Source: Enterobacteria phage vB_EcoM_IME341
Direction: 5' to 3' (one strand)
DNA: 64,000 nucleotides
Sequence record: MH051917
Numbering within the stretch: position 1 is the first letter of the stretch; each line of letters opens with the position of its first letter. The notes beneath the pieces were generated by a model. It worked only from the letters and a program-made list of their open reading frames with translations. It was not told the origin of the DNA and ran no database searches. A program made the position numbers and the translations under genes. Positions 9,243 through 31,016 of the stretch are shown here, piece after piece.

Positions 9243-9319
9243 GGCCCTGTAGCTCAATGGTTAGCAGCAGTCCCCTCATAAGGGAAAGGTTACCAGTTCA
9301 AATCTGGTCTGGGTCACCA
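9243..9319 (+). tRNA. tRNA with CAU anticodon (Met, or Ile2 lysidine-type)
   Basis: GGCCCTG acceptor, D-arm GCTCAATGGTTAGC, anticodon loop CTCATAA, T-arm ACCAG-TTCAAAT-CTGGT, 3' CCA; one acceptor mismatch. Confidence 0.7.
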
Positions 9320-9387
9320 ACTTTGATTAGGTAGAGCAGTCAACTTCTCCATGAATAAATATCTATATAAAATTCATGGAGAAAATT

Positions 9388-10047
9388 ATGCTTTGCCAAT
9401 ATTGTTCTAAAGAATGTAAAAACTTAAATTCACTAAAGCAACATGAAAAACGGTGCAAATCTAACCCAAATGGATTAGATATGAGCGGCCCTAATAACCC
9501 TCGTTTCGGTCTTAAAGGTGTCAATCAATTTACAAAAGCCAAAGAACTAGGTAAAGAAATAAAGGTTTCTGATAAAACCAGAGAAAAACTTAGAAAAGCC
9601 AATACAGGATATGTATGGTCTAATGAACGCAAAGAAGCACATTCTAAAAGAATGCGGCAAGCTGTTCTTGATAATCCTGATTCATATTCTGCTTCTAATG
9701 TTTCTGGTCGAGTAAAAACATATGAGTTTGACGGATTTAAATTTAAAGGGACTTGGGAATTAAAAGTTGCTAAGTTTTTAAAAGAACACAATATCAAATA
9801 TACTAATGAAATAAAGCCAATTCCTTACGAATGGGAAGGTTCAGAACATCTCTATTTTCCTGATTTTTATTTACCCACTTATGATTTTTATATAGAAGTC
9901 AAAGGATATAAAAGAGATAGAGACCTTTGTAAATGGAAAGCTTTAGAAAATTTGATAGTTTTAGAAAAAGATGAGATTTCCGATTTGTCTTGTCTTTTAA
10001 ATAAATTACGTCCCGCTGGTGTAATGGATAGCATACGATCCTTCTAA
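9388..10047 (+). CDS. putative freestanding homing-endonuclease-like protein
   Basis: N-terminal Cys cluster CQYCSKEC...HEKRC, NUMOD-like basic repeats, C-terminal PD-(D/E)xK-like FPDF...YIEVKG; inserted between tRNAs like seg genes in T4; ORF-track start 9376 lies inside a hairpin. Confidence 0.5.
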   Translation: MLCQYCSKECKNLNSLKQHEKRCKSNPNGLDMSGPNNPRFGLKGVNQFTKAKELGKEIKVSDKTREKLRKANTGYVWSNERKEAHSKRMRQAVLDNPDSYSASNVSGRVKTYEFDGFKFKGTWELKVAKFLKEHNIKYTNEIKPIPYEWEGSEHLYFPDFYLPTYDFYIEVKGYKRDRDLCKWKALENLIVLEKDEISDLSCLLNKLRPAGVMDSIRSF

Positions 10048-10084
10048 GTTTGCGGTCCTGGTTCGATCCCAGGGCGGGATACCA
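10010..10084 (+). tRNA. tRNA-Arg (anticodon UCU)
   Basis: Acceptor GTCCCGC/GCGGGAT, T-arm CCTGG-TTCGATC-CCAGG, anticodon loop with TCT, 3' CCA; first ~38 nt overlap the endonuclease ORF 3' end. Confidence 0.75.
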
Positions 10085-15520: not shown

Positions 15521-16480
15521 ATGATGCTAGTTATTGGTTCTCGCGCACTGCACCACGCTGGTCTGATTGAAAATAAGTATATCGAAAATTCTGATTGGGA
15601 TTTCATTGCCGACCAAGGCTCATGGAACCACTTTAAAGCTCGGATGTTCGGCGCCCATGTACACGTTGACAATCCTGATGTTCAGGCTTTCAAATGTATG
15701 CATAATGGTAAAGAAACCTATTTCGAAGCTTATATCGTCCGTGCTCTGACTAACGTACGTGAAATCACTGGTGAGCTCCAAGACGAAGATTTCACCTCAA
15801 GTTATCGTCTCCTGAAATATGCTGAAAATCGTATTAAAAAGGACCGTCTTACAGGTTTCTATTGGGCTACGCCTGATATCTGTCTGGCTATCAAAACCTC
15901 TCATCGTTTCCTGAAGAATAATCCTTTCTTCTTGAAAACTATGTCCCACATCAAATACCTTCGTAATAAAGGTATCACCCTGAATGAAGAACTCCAGGAA
16001 ATTATGCTGCAGCGTCAAAAAGAAACGTTGAGCTATTCCCACCCTAAATTGGATGTAAACAAATCATCGTTCTTTAACGATACCATTTATACGCTAGACC
16101 ACGACTCTATCCATGAAGCCGTGGCATTGGCAGGGCGCCCGGCATATACCTTTTATATGAAGGAAGGTTCTGAAGTCATGACCTCTCGTGAGAAGTTCGA
16201 GGCTTTGCCTGAAGCTATTAAACTGGCTGGTGTATATGAAGAAACTTGTGTCCTGGCACTAGAACGTTCACAGGTTCCTAATGACTTCAATATTTCACCA
16301 TCATTAAGTTTCTATATGGCTCTTGAGAAAGTGTGTACCTCAATCACTTCAGGTTGGTTCCGTGAGTACGCCTGGGAAAACTACCAAGCTGTGGTTAATA
16401 TGTACAAGACTTTAGGTGAAAACGACTACATCAAACGATTCCAAGATAACCATCATTTAATTCGTCCTTTCGAAAAATAA
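15521..16480 (+). CDS. hypothetical protein, possible nucleotidyltransferase-fold N-terminus
   Basis: 320 aa from ATG 15521 (SD GAGGAA); N-terminal GS...DWD resembles a loose Pol-beta NTase motif. Confidence 0.5.
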   Translation: MMLVIGSRALHHAGLIENKYIENSDWDFIADQGSWNHFKARMFGAHVHVDNPDVQAFKCMHNGKETYFEAYIVRALTNVREITGELQDEDFTSSYRLLKYAENRIKKDRLTGFYWATPDICLAIKTSHRFLKNNPFFLKTMSHIKYLRNKGITLNEELQEIMLQRQKETLSYSHPKLDVNKSSFFNDTIYTLDHDSIHEAVALAGRPAYTFYMKEGSEVMTSREKFEALPEAIKLAGVYEETCVLALERSQVPNDFNISPSLSFYMALEKVCTSITSGWFREYAWENYQAVVNMYKTLGENDYIKRFQDNHHLIRPFEK

Positions 16481-25926: not shown

Positions 25927-25930
25927 TCAA

Positions 25931-25957
25931 AGGTCTCACTTCGGTGGGACCTTTTTT
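25931..25957 (+). terminator. intrinsic terminator
   Basis: aggtctcac-ttcg-gtgggacct + TTTTTT. Confidence 0.7.
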
Positions 25958-25966
25958 CGTTTAGGT

Positions 25967-25995
25967 GTTTACATCCTCTAGGAACATGATACTAT
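25967..25995 (+). promoter_or_regulatory. early promoter cassette
   Basis: gtttacatcctctaggaacatgatactatagacctatcaactaatgagg. Confidence 0.6.
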
Positions 25996-26960: not shown

Positions 26961-27521
26961 ATGATTATTGAAACATCTGGGTTGTTTGGTGACCTGACCG
27001 CTGAAGTAGTTGATAATGCAATTGTGCTTTCACAAGAAGACGATAAAATCGTACTGACTATCCAAGATATCAAACCACTTTACGATTTAAAGGTTTTGGA
27101 CAAACACCAATATCTTAATGGTAGTTTTAGAGGTGTATTTAATATTAACGATGATATGTGGGCCCAGATTTATAACCATGACAACGGGTTTAATTTGGAA
27201 ACGGATAGGGAATGTCTAAGCATTAGTGATTCTGCTAATTTCTTTAAATGTATTTTTAAACTGTTCCAGGAAGAATGTAAGCCAGAAGTCGAATGGAAAG
27301 TCCCTGGCCAAGATGCGGTGATTCGTTCTAGTGAAACCTTTGAGGGTGACGAAGAAGAACTGGATTATGACACCGAATTGTCCGTGTATCAACACCAGGG
27401 TCGTGATTTGCTATCCTTGACCCAAAGACATGACGGTGAAAATGAAGTGGTATTTACTAAGGACGAGCTCAAGGCTTTAGTCTCTTATCTGAACTCTGTT
27501 ATCCCAACTATGAACTCTTAA
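26961..27521 (+). CDS. hypothetical acidic protein
   Basis: 186 aa, SD GAGGAA. Confidence 0.5.
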   Translation: MIIETSGLFGDLTAEVVDNAIVLSQEDDKIVLTIQDIKPLYDLKVLDKHQYLNGSFRGVFNINDDMWAQIYNHDNGFNLETDRECLSISDSANFFKCIFKLFQEECKPEVEWKVPGQDAVIRSSETFEGDEEELDYDTELSVYQHQGRDLLSLTQRHDGENEVVFTKDELKALVSYLNSVIPTMNS

Positions 27522-27530
27522 GGAAATATT

Positions 27531-27983
27531 ATGATTATCAATACAAACTCTTGGCACGTTAAATTACACGACCGTTTTTATGACCGTCATTCTCGACCGC
27601 ACTCTTTATGTGCTTACTTCTGGAAAATGGTTTGGGCCTGTTTTGCTTGTGCTGTTGTTGCAGGTAGTACGCTTTTTGGATTAACTGTTGCAGGCGCTGG
27701 TGTATTAGAGCATTTCTTTGTATTAAGTACCCCTGTTCTGTTGAGTCTAGGGTTTGTTTTAGGGTTGATTACGATAGCTCTTATTATTGCGCTATCCATT
27801 GGTTTGGCATTCGGTGCGATGAATTTACACGCATGGTATGATGCCCGTAGAGAAGAAAAGGAATGGCAACGTATTCAAGCTGAGCGTGAAGGCCGAGAAA
27901 CTAAAGAAAACGTTGTCATCCAATATATTAAAGCTCGTAAATCTAAGGTCTGCCCTGTAATCCACTTCGAGAACAAAGAATGA
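27531..27983 (+). CDS. membrane protein
   Basis: 150 aa, two long hydrophobic segments. Confidence 0.5.
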   Translation: MIINTNSWHVKLHDRFYDRHSRPHSLCAYFWKMVWACFACAVVAGSTLFGLTVAGAGVLEHFFVLSTPVLLSLGFVLGLITIALIIALSIGLAFGAMNLHAWYDARREEKEWQRIQAEREGRETKENVVIQYIKARKSKVCPVIHFENKE

Positions 27984-28990
27984 GAACAGTTATGAAAGGC
28001 TACTTCGGTAGCCACCTTTATGGAACAAGTACTCCGGAATCTGATGTCGATTTTAAAGAAATCTTTGTTCCACATCCGCGTGATATTCTGTTAGGTACGG
28101 CTATGAACCATACCAACCTGAATACGAATAACACCGCTTCCAAAAACACTAAAGATGATGTTGACCACGAGCTTTATAGCCTGAAATATTTCTTTAAACT
28201 AGCGGCTGAAGGCGAAACCGTTGCTCTGGACATGATTCATACTCCACCTGAACTGGTGGTTAAATCTGATTTACCTGATGTATGGAAATTTATCCAGGAT
28301 AACCGTTCACGGTTCTATACAACCAACATGAAAGCCTATTTAGGGTACGTCCGTAAGCAAGCTTCTAAATATGGTGTTAAAGGTTCTCGTCTGGCTGCTC
28401 TGCGTGGTGTACTGGCTATTGTTAACCAGATTCCTGAACAGTGGGTCGATTATCAAGAAGATGGTTCGACTAAGCAACGTCGCTCTAAGGTGGAAGATAT
28501 CAAACATCGGCTCCCTGAAAACGAATTCTGTGAATGGGTATTCCATAACCATGAGAAAACAGGTCCTCAAACGTTTTATACTGTTCTCGGACGTAAATAC
28601 CAAACCACTCTGTCATTAATCGAGCTCAAGCAATCTCTGAATAAGCTCGATGCGGAATATGGTGAACGTGCTCGTAAGGCTGAAGCCAATGAAGGTATTG
28701 ACTGGAAAGCTCTGAGCCATGCTTATCGTGCTGGTTATCAGTTGAAGGAAATCTATCAAACAGGTGACCTGGTTTATCCGCTTAAAAATGCTTCTATTAT
28801 TAAAGCAATAAAAGCAGGTGATATGCCTTTTAAAGTGGTCCAAGGGCTGTTGGAAAATATTGTTGATGAAGTCGAAGTCCTGGCTATCCAGGCTCATAAG
28901 AACGGTATGCCTGAGAAGGTAGATATGAAGTTCTGGGACAAGTTCGTTGAAGAGGTGTACCTTGACAACCACAACGCTTATTACCGCTAA
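27980..28990 (+). CDS. Pol-beta superfamily nucleotidyltransferase, unknown substrate
   Basis: N-terminal GSHLYGTSTPESDVDF (hG[GS]x9-13DxD) plus downstream ALDMIH acidic motif; 336 aa. Confidence 0.55.
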   Translation: MRTVMKGYFGSHLYGTSTPESDVDFKEIFVPHPRDILLGTAMNHTNLNTNNTASKNTKDDVDHELYSLKYFFKLAAEGETVALDMIHTPPELVVKSDLPDVWKFIQDNRSRFYTTNMKAYLGYVRKQASKYGVKGSRLAALRGVLAIVNQIPEQWVDYQEDGSTKQRRSKVEDIKHRLPENEFCEWVFHNHEKTGPQTFYTVLGRKYQTTLSLIELKQSLNKLDAEYGERARKAEANEGIDWKALSHAYRAGYQLKEIYQTGDLVYPLKNASIIKAIKAGDMPFKVVQGLLENIVDEVEVLAIQAHKNGMPEKVDMKFWDKFVEEVYLDNHNAYYR

Positions 28991-29186
28991 AGAAGAAATT
29001 AACGTCTTTCTATCGTATGGAAGACCTCATAAAACTCGACGTTGGTATCTTGAAGCCGTCTGTAAAGAAACCGGACGTCGAGTCAATATCAAGTACGCAT
29101 GCAAACCTACGCCTAAACAGACAAGACGATTTGTTAACTGGGCTATAAATGATATCCGCTTCTATAATTTTTGGAGCGCAATTTAG
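28947..29186 (+). CDS. possible small basic protein
   Basis: ORF-track ORF with TTG start overlapping NTase 3' end; ends at terminator. Confidence 0.25.
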   Translation: MKRCTLTTTTLITAKEEINVFLSYGRPHKTRRWYLEAVCKETGRRVNIKYACKPTPKQTRRFVNWAINDIRFYNFWSAI

Positions 29187-29207
29187 GAACCTTCGGGTTC
29201 CTTTTTT
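29185..29207 (+). terminator. intrinsic terminator
   Basis: aggaacc-ttcg-ggttcct + TTTTTT. Confidence 0.7.
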
Positions 29208-29226
29208 GGGTTTAGTGCAAAAAGGT

Positions 29227-29255
29227 GTTTACAACCTCGTAGAGCATGATACTAT
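29227..29255 (+). promoter_or_regulatory. early promoter cassette
   Basis: gtttacaacctcgtagagcatgatactatagacctatcaaataa. Confidence 0.6.
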
Positions 29256-29303
29256 AGACCTATCAAATAAATGAACTGAAACAACTTAAAACGGAGATAC
29301 AAA

Positions 29304-29558
29304 ATGAATATTAAAGCACCTTTCGCCGGTAATGTTATTCGTGAAGATTCAATCGAAATCAACGGTGTGGTAGTTAAAGCGGTTTTAACTGATATCAAAA
29401 CCCTGGTTAAAGTTGATTACTTAACCTTTAATTTCGAAAACATTGAAGGTTATATTAATTTCCCACCAAGCATTAAAATGCATGTACGCCATGAAACTTG
29501 GTCTAAAGCAGATCAGCAAAAAGCAGTAGATTTTATTATTGAGTTCTTCTCAAAATAA
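29304..29558 (+). CDS. hypothetical protein
   Basis: 84 aa. Confidence 0.5.
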   Translation: MNIKAPFAGNVIREDSIEINGVVVKAVLTDIKTLVKVDYLTFNFENIEGYINFPPSIKMHVRHETWSKADQQKAVDFIIEFFSK

Positions 29559-29560
29559 GT

Positions 29561-29589
29561 GTGTACATATGCTTTAAACGTGTTATTAT
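29561..29589 (+). promoter_or_regulatory. degenerate early promoter cassette (GTGTAC / TATTAT)
   Basis: gtgtacatatgctttaaacgtgttattatagacctatcaa. Confidence 0.4.
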
Positions 29590-29626
29590 AGACCTATCAA
29601 ATCTACTGAGTGAAATGGAGAATATA

Positions 29627-30607
29627 ATGTTAACTATCAAAATCAACAAAGGTATCTATCGCGGTAATGAAATCTCTGGTACGTTCATGAGTTCAGGTAA
29701 AACCTGGTTCCCTAATAAAATTCATGAATCCGAAGCTCACCTCGGTGATGGCAAGGTATTCGTACAGATTGATGGTGTTGAACGTGGTGTATGGGTGTTC
29801 AAATGTGACGTTGAAATGGAAGGTGCTGAAGCTCCTGTAGTGGTTACTGAATCCGCTGAAGAAATGAAACATCGCATCAACAAACGTTTTAAAGTAATGA
29901 ACATGATGACTAACGGAATCATCGATGGTAAAATTCGTTCCCTTATCATCTCTGGTGCCGCAGGTATTGGTAAAACGTATTCTTTGGATAAAGCATTACA
30001 GAATGCCCATGAAAATGAAACTATCGAATATAAATCAATCAACGGAAAGATTAGTGGAATCGGTCTTTACGAGCAGCTTTGGAATAACCGCGGCCCTAAT
30101 AGTGTTCTTCTTATCGATGATGTTGATGTATTCTCTGATATGGATATCCTGAACCTGTTAAAAGCAGCATTGGATACCGGTGAAAAACGTAAGGTGTGCT
30201 GGAGCACTTCAAGTTCTTACCTCGATGATAAAAATATCGATAAAGAATTCGAATACGAAGGCACCATCGTGTTCATCACCAACGTTGATATTGACCGTGA
30301 ATTAGAACGTGGAACTAAACTTGCTCCACACCTCCAGGCTTTAGTATCTCGTTCAGTTTACTTAGACCTCGGAGTTCACTCTAACGAAGAGATTATGGTT
30401 CGTGTTGAAGACGTTATCCTGTCCACTGATATGATGCAAAACCGAGGTCTGTCTGATGCTGAGACCTATCAAGCTTTAGCATGGATGAAGGCTAATGTAT
30501 CTCGTCTTCGTAACGTATCATTACGTACAGCTCTTTATCTAGCGGACTTCATTGCCACCGATAAAAATGACTGGAACGAAATCGCTGAAGTTACCCTTCT
30601 GAAATAA
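29627..30607 (+). CDS. P-loop AAA-type ATPase of unknown function
   Basis: Walker A SGAAGIGKT, Walker B VLLIDDVD; 327 aa from ATG after cassette SD. Confidence 0.55.
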   Translation: MLTIKINKGIYRGNEISGTFMSSGKTWFPNKIHESEAHLGDGKVFVQIDGVERGVWVFKCDVEMEGAEAPVVVTESAEEMKHRINKRFKVMNMMTNGIIDGKIRSLIISGAAGIGKTYSLDKALQNAHENETIEYKSINGKISGIGLYEQLWNNRGPNSVLLIDDVDVFSDMDILNLLKAALDTGEKRKVCWSTSSSYLDDKNIDKEFEYEGTIVFITNVDIDRELERGTKLAPHLQALVSRSVYLDLGVHSNEEIMVRVEDVILSTDMMQNRGLSDAETYQALAWMKANVSRLRNVSLRTALYLADFIATDKNDWNEIAEVTLLK

Positions 30608-30617
30608 AGGTGAAATT

Positions 30618-30959
30618 ATGTTCGAACAATTTAGTTACGACCTTATAAAAGCAGAGTTGAAGTACTCTAATGCCATGAAACAGTCCGTCGAGGACTACGA
30701 TAATGAATTTAAATACAAATTCGCCGAAAAGGTTTATAAAACCGATTGTGAAGAAGGAGACTACAAGAGACTGGCCTTGGCCGCTAAGACTCAGGCCTTA
30801 ATAAATCTAGACCGTAAGCAGGTAAAGTTGGCAGGCGACTTCCGAGGTGAACTCTGCGCCATCAGGAATGAATACCTTATTCGTATTAAACACCAACGGA
30901 AAGAGAACAACCAATCCGCTTGGTTTAGTGGTCAATCAGGTGAAAAAAGTTTCTATTAG
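30618..30959 (+). CDS. hypothetical protein
   Basis: 113 aa. Confidence 0.5.
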   Translation: MFEQFSYDLIKAELKYSNAMKQSVEDYDNEFKYKFAEKVYKTDCEEGDYKRLALAAKTQALINLDRKQVKLAGDFRGELCAIRNEYLIRIKHQRKENNQSAWFSGQSGEKSFY

Positions 30960-30961
30960 TT

Positions 30962-30990
30962 GTTTACATCTCCAGTAGAAATGATACTAT
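30962..30990 (+). promoter_or_regulatory. early promoter cassette with RBS-sequestering inverted repeat
   Basis: gtttacatctccagtagaaatgatactatagacctatcaactactggag; arms ctccagtag / ctactggag. Confidence 0.6.
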
Positions 30991-31016
30991 AGACCTATCA
31001 ACTACTGGAGGTTATC

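Follow-up and report, generated by a model that had tools for sequence, protein, structure and literature searches.

The window analyzed here is a stretch of 64,000 nucleotides (nt) from Enterobacteria phage vB_EcoM_IME341 (MH051917), a Dhakavirus-like T4-type phage. On its forward strand lies a gene for a protein of 336 amino acids (aa) that we identify as the ortholog of T4 nrdC.11. An initial annotation, made from the sequence alone, had read this gene as a nucleotidyltransferase (NTase) of the DNA polymerase beta (Pol-beta) superfamily with an unknown substrate. We describe the gene, its membership in the RlaP family, the RNA-repair genes that accompany its cellular relatives, and a possible role in the repair of cleaved tRNA.

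The nrdC.11 gene of the window and its T4 ortholog

The positions of the gene and of the other features discussed below are collected in Table 1. The start ATG of nrdC.11 shares an ATGA with the TGA of the preceding gene, and in the list of open reading frames (ORFs) the protein begins MRTVMKGYFGSHLYGTSTPESDVDFKEIF. A vB_EcoM_IME341 protein entry of 332 aa is 100% identical to it, and the counterpart in UPEC01 is 98.5 to 99% identical. When the protein was used as a tblastn query, 1,545 phage records were matched, and in 1,441 of these the match covered 80% or more of the protein.

The initial annotation had reported that it knew no T4 counterpart, which is wrong. The window protein and T4 NrdC.11 (NP_049709.1; T4p095) are of equal length and align without gaps, with 273 of 336 residues identical (81%). 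The direction of transcription is also the same, and the order mobD.1 homolog, nrdC.11, nrdC.10, and on towards nrdC is common to the window, T4, RB3, and IME08. Because of this ungapped identity and the shared place upstream of nrdC.10, the window gene is the counterpart of T4 nrdC.11; high identity over the full length and a syntenic location within the nrdC-mobD early region place it in the T4 NrdC.11 orthologous group. The two loci differ in two respects. Directly upstream, the window has a 150-aa membrane protein (phrog_944), whereas T4 has the homing endonuclease mobD; and the spacing between nrdC.11 and nrdC.10 is about 570 to 640 nt in the window, compared with about 115 nt for T4 and 22 nt for IME08.

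As a gene call, nothing here is new: T4 NrdC.11 has the RefSeq product name "nucleotidyltransferase," the Pfam family is named, and the literature has already drawn attention to the T4 ortholog. Gene, family, and ortholog were thus already catalogued, and the chemistry of the family has recently been described. Many orthologs in phage records and UniRef carry the product name "thioredoxin," and one is named "HNH homing endonuclease." The label "thioredoxin" is probably an error inherited from the nrdC.N locus names.

Table 1. Positions of nrdC.11, its functional elements, neighboring features, and other features of the window, with the tandem loci of cellular relatives in the last row (locus coordinates)
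Feature	Position	Strand	Basis or remark
nrdC.11 ortholog coding sequence, 336 aa, divergent NrdC.11-type RlaP (PF10127)	27980-28990	+	ATG-started ORF, Pfam, PHROG, T4 identity
NTase signature G10-S11-x10-D22-x-D24 (GSHLYGTSTPESDVDF)	28007-28054	+	Conserved in 137 relatives; aligns with canonical RlaP GSRAWGFPSxDSDYD
D62, probable third metal-binding carboxylate, start of beta-strand 61-67	28163-28165	+	Acidic in 137/137; aligns with invariant Asp of canonical RlaP
D84 (in ALDMIH), conserved acidic residue in helix 80-85	28229-28231	+	Asp in 96%, acidic in 98%; aligns with canonical RlaP Glu ("EW")
Beta-rich insert, aa 154-208	28439-28603	+	DSSP strands 154-158, 164-168, 184-191, 195-202, 205-208; predicted local distance difference test (pLDDT) above 90
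C-terminal motif K243-x3-H247-x2-R250 in DWKALSHAYR	28706-28729	+	H247 and R250 invariant, K243 99%
Terminator-like hairpin, then T-run	29185-29202	+	7-bp stem with 4 GC pairs, then TTTTTTGGGTT; consensus match only
Promoter-like site TTTACA-16-TACTAT with TG	25968-25995	+	Just past terminator-like hairpin 25929-25954
TTTACA/TACTAT hexamer pair seen again	29228-29255; 30963-30990		
Promoter-like sites in nrdC.11-nrdC.10 spacer (29228-29626)	29228-29255; 29562-29589		
Small basic ORF	28947-29186	+	phrog_8921, E = 1e-36, match from residue 7 on
84-aa ORF in nrdC.11-nrdC.10 spacer	29304-29558		No PHROG match
NrdC.10, about 326 aa	29627-30607	+	GAAGIGKT; phrog_1250
Second NTase-like ORF, 319 aa	15521-16480		Best-supported start is the ATG at 15521
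tRNA-Met (CAT)	9243-9319		ARAGORN
tRNA-Arg (TCT)	10010-10084		ARAGORN
223-aa ORF	9376-10047		Between the two tRNA genes
Gene 57B, 151 aa	6533-6988	+	Synteny with IME08
Tandem NrdC.11-type/canonical RlaP loci	L036 1555-9158; L061 3338-8277; L017, L019, L037, L056, L058, L064, L078, L079, L085		

A divergent, longer member of the RlaP family

Searching 1.84 billion representative proteins, we obtained 3,167 relatives with E values of at most 1e-3, of which 816 reached 1e-30 or lower; conservation was assessed in an alignment of 137 relatives that were 35 to 82% identical. The motif at the N terminus consists of F9-G10-S11, ten residues, and D22-V-D24. In the alignment G10, S21, D22, D24, Y131, H247, R250, and P267 were invariant, and S11 (99%), D60, D62, D84, K130, and K243 (99%) were conserved in at least 90% of the sequences, with S11, D60, D62, and D84 at 96% or more. 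This conservation means that the GS-x10-DxD motif is not a chance match, and both the 336-aa ORF and the motif described in the initial annotation are real. The most conserved stretch was the C-terminal motif with K243, H247, and R250, which we used as a scanning pattern. All of the motif residues are retained in T4 NrdC.11 except D60, which is Asn there, whereas D62 is kept.

An AlphaFold2 model built from the 137-sequence alignment had a mean pLDDT of 94.7 and a predicted template modeling score of 0.83. In the model the NTase core has strand beta1 (2-9), then G10-S11 and a short helix, then beta2 (23-30) right after D22 and D24, followed by strands 44-48 and 61-67. Helices continue to residue 150, and a helical bundle (213-335), with a long terminal helix (316-335), follows the beta-rich insert. 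The helical C-terminal half described initially is therefore present as the bundle, but the insert that precedes it had been missed. This insert has low sequence conservation.

The initial annotation had also named ALDMIH (aa 82-87) as a third acidic site. D84 in this stretch is indeed conserved, but judging from the model the third catalytic carboxylate is more likely to be D62. D62 stands at the start of a strand, is acidic in every relative, and is aligned with an invariant Asp of the canonical RlaPs introduced below, while D84 is helical; ALDMIH was probably misassigned.

When the model was compared with solved structures by Foldseek, the nearest folds were NTases. The top neighbor was HalB of the Hailong system (PDB 9dbh and 9dbj), a protein of 217 residues with 14% identity to the window protein. 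Kanamycin nucleotidyltransferase ANT(4'), the NTase-like protein 3c18, and the MNT-HEPN pairs share with the window protein an architecture in which a HEPN/KNTase-C-like helical bundle comes after the NTase domain; ANT(4') and 3c18 were 8 to 10% identical to it, with Foldseek E values of about 1e-2 and template modeling scores of 0.26 to 0.31. Sequence searches of the PDB, made with the single protein and with the 137-sequence profile, found no relative. Structure prediction followed by Foldseek had been the check proposed at the outset; it placed the GS and DxD residues in an NTase core of the form beta-GS-helix-beta(DxD). With the family match described next, the model indicates that the window protein is a Pol-beta-superfamily NTase, as first annotated.

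The protein matched Pfam PF10127 (RlaP, "RNA repair pathway DNA polymerase beta family") with 42.9 bits and an E value of 6.1e-11, above the gathering cutoff of 23. PHROG 388 ("nucleotidyltransferase") was matched end to end (E = 7.5e-130), and all 120 listed close homologs carried a precomputed PF10127 annotation. Two RlaPs of Pseudomonas, PfRlaP and PaRlaP, whose genes lie between rtcB and rtcA, have been characterized by Carruthers, Fatma, and Huang (bioRxiv, December 2025; PMC12776372). Both add one or two nucleoside monophosphates (NMPs) to the 3'-OH of RNA and not to DNA or protein (PMC12776372). In the crystal structure of PfRlaP an N-terminal NTase is joined to a C-terminal helical domain, the last helix of which packs back on the NTase and so forms a cleft; the C-terminal half forms the proposed RNA cleft (PMC12776372). 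This structure was absent from the PDB copies used in the searches above. The enzymes studied belong to cluster 1a of the PF10127 network, whereas T4 NrdC.11 was placed in cluster 5 and marked "of unknown function" (PMC12776372). Thus, at the level of the family, the substrate can no longer be called unknown.

We compared the NrdC.11-type alignment with 11 canonical RlaPs (PF10127 proteins of cluster 1a type), which are the tandem partners described below. By hhalign the two were related over residues 2 to 129 (probability 94.6%, E = 6.5e-8), with GS paired with GS, D22 and D24 with DxD, D62 with the invariant Asp of "LDxNGWD," and D84 with the invariant Glu of "EW." A canonical RlaP probe also matched phage NrdC.11-type genes directly, with E values of about 1e-5 to 1e-6. 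The two types thus share a Pfam family and a homologous NTase domain, and in secondary structure the model agrees with the PfRlaP plan of an N-terminal NTase and a C-terminal helical domain (NTase core, bundle, terminal helix), apart from the extra insert. They differ in length (about 255 to 275 aa in the canonical RlaPs, whose shorter chains do not account for the insert), and their identity, about 22 to 25%, does not extend beyond roughly residue 130. Homology of the C-terminal domains was considered, since K243, H247, and R250 fall on a K-x3-Y-x2-R of the canonical RlaPs, and was dropped because the profile comparison was not significant (E = 0.065, probability below 1%). The window protein thus represents a divergent and longer RlaP subfamily with the common catalytic domain, an insert of its own, and a diverged substrate-side domain.

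Gene neighborhoods of the relatives and of the window

We scanned one genome per prokaryotic species with the NrdC.11-type alignment and found 156 encoded relatives. Gene contexts were counted in the best 80 of these 156 loci, whose proteins are full-length and 33 to 52% identical to the window protein. The hosts were Desulfobacterales, Nitrospirota, Alphaproteobacteria, some archaea, and others, and several of the loci were on megabase-scale contigs. RtcB, Pnkp, or Ro60 was encoded within 6 kb in 16 of the 80 loci, and in 11 of the 50 loci with full flanks. RtcB accounted for nine of the 16 loci, the bacterial Pnkp kinase-phosphatase-ligase for five, and Ro60/TROVE for four, with two loci carrying two of these genes. 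A genome has at most about one of each such repair gene, so that chance occurrence in a 12-kb stretch should be well under 1%, a figure that is our estimate and not a sampled control. Putative operon partners included 11 canonical RlaPs, RtcB, RtcA, Pnkp, Hen1, AAA_33 kinase-like proteins, and HD domains. Both RlaP types are thus associated with RNA-repair operons containing RtcB, Pnkp, and Hen1.

In 11 loci a second PF10127 protein was encoded directly downstream of the NrdC.11-type gene, with a gap of 15 to 64 nt or an overlap. These partners are 255 to 275 aa long, match Pfam with E values down to 6e-81, and have the motif ESGSRAWGFPSxDSDYDVRF, by which we classify them as canonical RlaPs. 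In Nitrosospira (L036) the genes for Ro60, RtcB, RtcA, the NrdC.11 type, a canonical RlaP, and Hen1 follow one another on one strand. In Asticcacaulis (L061) the order is Pnkp, the NrdC.11 type, a canonical RlaP, and a Macro-domain protein, and here stop codons overlap the start codons that follow. Gene identity, family membership, the NTase fold, the conserved catalytic residues, and the repair-gene context of the cellular relatives can be taken as established.

Among viruses, the T4-like loci showed only the synteny of T4. Of 26 distant viral loci at 48% identity or less, six had a repair gene within 8 kb (RtcB in three, an Rnl1-like ligase in two, and a PseT-like kinase in one). Three metagenomic phage contexts of RlaP homologs had no neighbor in common. 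In one of these metagenomic phage contigs (L003, 8001-14980), the gene directly after a 38%-identical RlaP homolog encodes an "AcrVA2-like" domain (PF26125), and a CCA-adding-type enzyme (PolyA_pol plus HD) is encoded 4.7 kb downstream. In a comparative analysis of jumbo phages, RlaP was reported to follow RNA ligases in its distribution, and its predicted function was to put back nucleotides that nucleases such as RloC had taken out (PMC7824862). Our own counts per host genus were nearly identical for NrdC.11, PseT, and RnlA; we gave this codistribution little weight, as it is explained by shared ancestry within the Straboviridae.

In the window itself, the genes around nrdC.11 offer no hint of its function. 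It is preceded by genes for a mobD.1-like protein and the 150-aa membrane protein. It is followed by the small phrog_8921 gene, a terminator-like hairpin, promoter-like sites, the 84-aa ORF, and the gene for NrdC.10. The last part of nrdC.11 is shared with the phrog_8921 ORF, which terminates at the hairpin. From its sequence, this hairpin is the probable end of the transcription unit that holds nrdC.11, and the promoter-like site upstream (25968-25995) is a possible start of an early unit reaching it. Most related genomes cover only 85 to 92% of a 27000-31000 query, and for that reason part of the region between nrdC.11 and nrdC.10 looks like an insertion. NrdC.10 is a conserved P-loop protein, a P-loop ATPase; its Pfam and PADLOC matches were weak and generic to P-loops, with all AAA/STAND-NTPase matches below threshold and one match to HTH_37. 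It was considered as a functional partner of NrdC.11 and rejected, as it does not resemble the AAA_5 ATPase encoded in the Nitrosospira repair cluster; it is also unlike the AcrVA2-like gene of the metagenomic phage.

A second, weaker NTase-like N terminus noted in the initial annotation (15521-16480) is likewise a real feature, and its NTase character holds at the level of the fold. The ORF matches Pfam DUF7277 and DUF7275 and PHROG 2141, all of unknown function; across 60 relatives, G6, S7, D25, D27, and E69 do not vary, and the nearest solved folds are the MenT tRNA-modifying toxins. It occurs in 732 phage records and is a "hypothetical protein" in all that were inspected. Kinship with RlaP was rejected because profile comparisons aligned only GS...DxD and were not significant, so that the ORF represents a different NTase lineage. 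Less understood than NrdC.11, it may deserve a separate look and may prove of more use.

Two further parts of the window touch on RNA. ARAGORN found only two tRNA genes at 9243-10084, tRNA-Met and tRNA-Arg; the 223-aa ORF splits them and runs into the start of tRNA-Arg. The counterpart in IME08 has three adjacent tRNA genes (Arg, Asn, and Met) and no intervening ORF, and the 223-aa ORF may be a mobile-element insertion in the tRNA cluster, perhaps a homing endonuclease. Gene 57B is labeled "RNA ligase" in the IME08 RefSeq record. We take T4 57B to be the 2H-phosphoesterase Acb1, which acts against the cyclic oligonucleotide-based antiphage signaling system (anti-CBASS), and on this account the label is probably misleading.

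A possible role in the repair of cleaved tRNA

The chemistry of the characterized RlaPs, together with the RNA-repair genes around the relatives, points to a role in mending RNA breaks. We think it reasonably likely, though far from certain, that NrdC.11 replaces nucleotides that a cleaved tRNA has lost to trimming, ahead of resealing by the phage Pnkp and RNA ligase. The acceptor, the nucleotides added, the order of the steps, and the biological target given here are what we infer by analogy. NrdC.11 would be a template-independent RNA 3'-end nucleotidyltransferase, with D22, D24, and D62 holding two divalent metal ions; the RlaPs tested prefer Mn2+ and have little specificity for the nucleoside triphosphate (NTP) (PMC12776372). 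An RloC-type anticodon nuclease of the host would cut the anticodon loop of a tRNA and trim a nucleotide. The phage Pnkp (pseT) would first strip the 2',3'-cyclic phosphate or 3'-phosphate from the broken end. NrdC.11 would then use NTPs to extend the 3'-OH, most plausibly that of the 5' half of the tRNA, by one or two NMPs. Finally, RNA ligase 1 (rnlA) would join the two halves through this 3'-OH end and the 5'-phosphate of its partner. The products of RlaPs end in a 3'-OH, which suits ligases that use a 5'-phosphate (PMC12776372), and both pseT and rnlA are encoded by IME08, a related Dhakavirus. In this scheme nrdC.11 would add a third, accessory component to the T4-type tRNA-repair counterdefense, needed only after nucleotides have been lost and dispensable in laboratory hosts. 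T4 tolerates the loss of nrdC.11-mobD.3 (PMC9825161), which fits an accessory role.

Several observations weigh against this proposal. There are no RNA ligase or RNA-repair genes among the immediate neighbors of nrdC.11 in the window, and in IME08 nrdC.11 lies about 87 to 91 kb from pseT and rnlA. The similar counts for NrdC.11, PseT, and RnlA are confounded by the ancestry these genes share, and the tolerated loss of nrdC.11-mobD.3 is no positive evidence. The biochemistry covers only cluster 1a enzymes, to which the window protein is demonstrably related only in the NTase domain; the Pfam match is limited to aa 8 to 134, or positions 25 to 142 of the 249 in the profile. Because the C-terminal similarity is not significant and the beta-rich insert is extra, the substrate specificity of PfRlaP cannot be transferred with confidence. 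In the tandem loci, an NrdC.11-type protein and a canonical RlaP are encoded side by side, which implies that they are not redundant and that their activities may differ. Lastly, the best structural neighbor, HalB, makes DNA oligomers.

The initial annotation had proposed an RNA- or tRNA-modifying enzyme or a synthase or antagonist of a signaling nucleotide. The former is favored by our results, but an enzyme acting on RNA need not act on breaks. The same transferase could instead tail or mark RNAs, for instance with short tails that alter the stability of host or phage transcripts, or repair or alter the 3'-CCA of tRNAs. The chemistry would be identical, so the evidence from fold and family applies equally, and PfRlaP, with its tolerance for different NTPs, labels species the size of rRNA and tRNA when given total RNA (PMC12776372). 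The absence of a ligase adjoining nrdC.11 in T4-like phages would also be accounted for, as would the CCA-adding enzyme near the homolog in L003. However, the cellular members are found with RtcB, RtcA, Pnkp, and Hen1 and not with RNA-decay genes, and the RlaPs tested stop after one or two additions and favor the break-site end of a cleaved-tRNA mimic over the acceptor end (PMC12776372). We consider such tailing or CCA repair rather unlikely.

The bundle that follows the NTase, as in the ANT(4') and MNT-HEPN proteins, could suggest that the window protein nucleotidylylates a protein or small molecule, in the manner of MntA or of the aminoglycoside and lincosamide NTases, and so inactivates a host toxin or metabolite. 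The only match in an NCBIfam scan of the protein was in fact the MntA antitoxin (NF047752), but its score of 13.3 bits is far below the cutoff of 60 and the match covers only aa 8 to 25, i.e., the GS-DxD motif. The acceptors of ANT(4') and the MNT-HEPN enzymes are small molecules or proteins and their gene contexts are unrelated to that of the window gene, whereas the cellular neighbors of the NrdC.11 type are RNA-repair enzymes; neither the recurrent neighbor families nor the top 25 operon-partner families by frequency included a HEPN toxin. The RlaPs tested labeled neither E. coli proteins nor DNA (PMC12776372), and we regard nucleotidylylation as very improbable. We give marginally less credence still to synthesis of a short oligonucleotide, as by HalB, or of another nucleotide signal, with which the phage would mislead or counteract a host defense that monitors such signals: HalB works with the HalA channel in bacterial defense, but for the window protein and its neighbors PADLOC gave no match assigning a defense system, no partner effector gene was found, and the cellular contexts are those of RNA repair, not defense.

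The repair of nucleotide-depleted tRNA thus remains our preferred account, and the tandem loci suggest how it might be extended. Two paralogs in one operon suggest a division of labor, which could take the form of different nucleotide choices, different RNA ends, or a heterodimer. The position of the NrdC.11-type gene immediately upstream of a canonical RlaP, in operons with RtcB, RtcA, and Hen1 or with Pnkp, leads us to put forward, tentatively and as less probable than the repair role itself, that the NrdC.11 type is a functionally distinct second kind of RlaP. The lone phage copy could then be the missing third component of the Pnkp-Rnl1 pathway, reversing the excision of the wobble nucleotide by RloC, a lesion that has been proposed to defeat T4 repair (PMC3458546).

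The observation of the tandem pairs may be more useful than the finding about nrdC.11 itself. If NrdC.11 does repair nucleotide-depleted tRNAs, it would extend the oldest known RNA-repair pathway, that of T4 Pnkp and Rnl1 against PrrC, and would bear on whether "excising" nucleases of the RloC type truly escape the counterdefense of phages.

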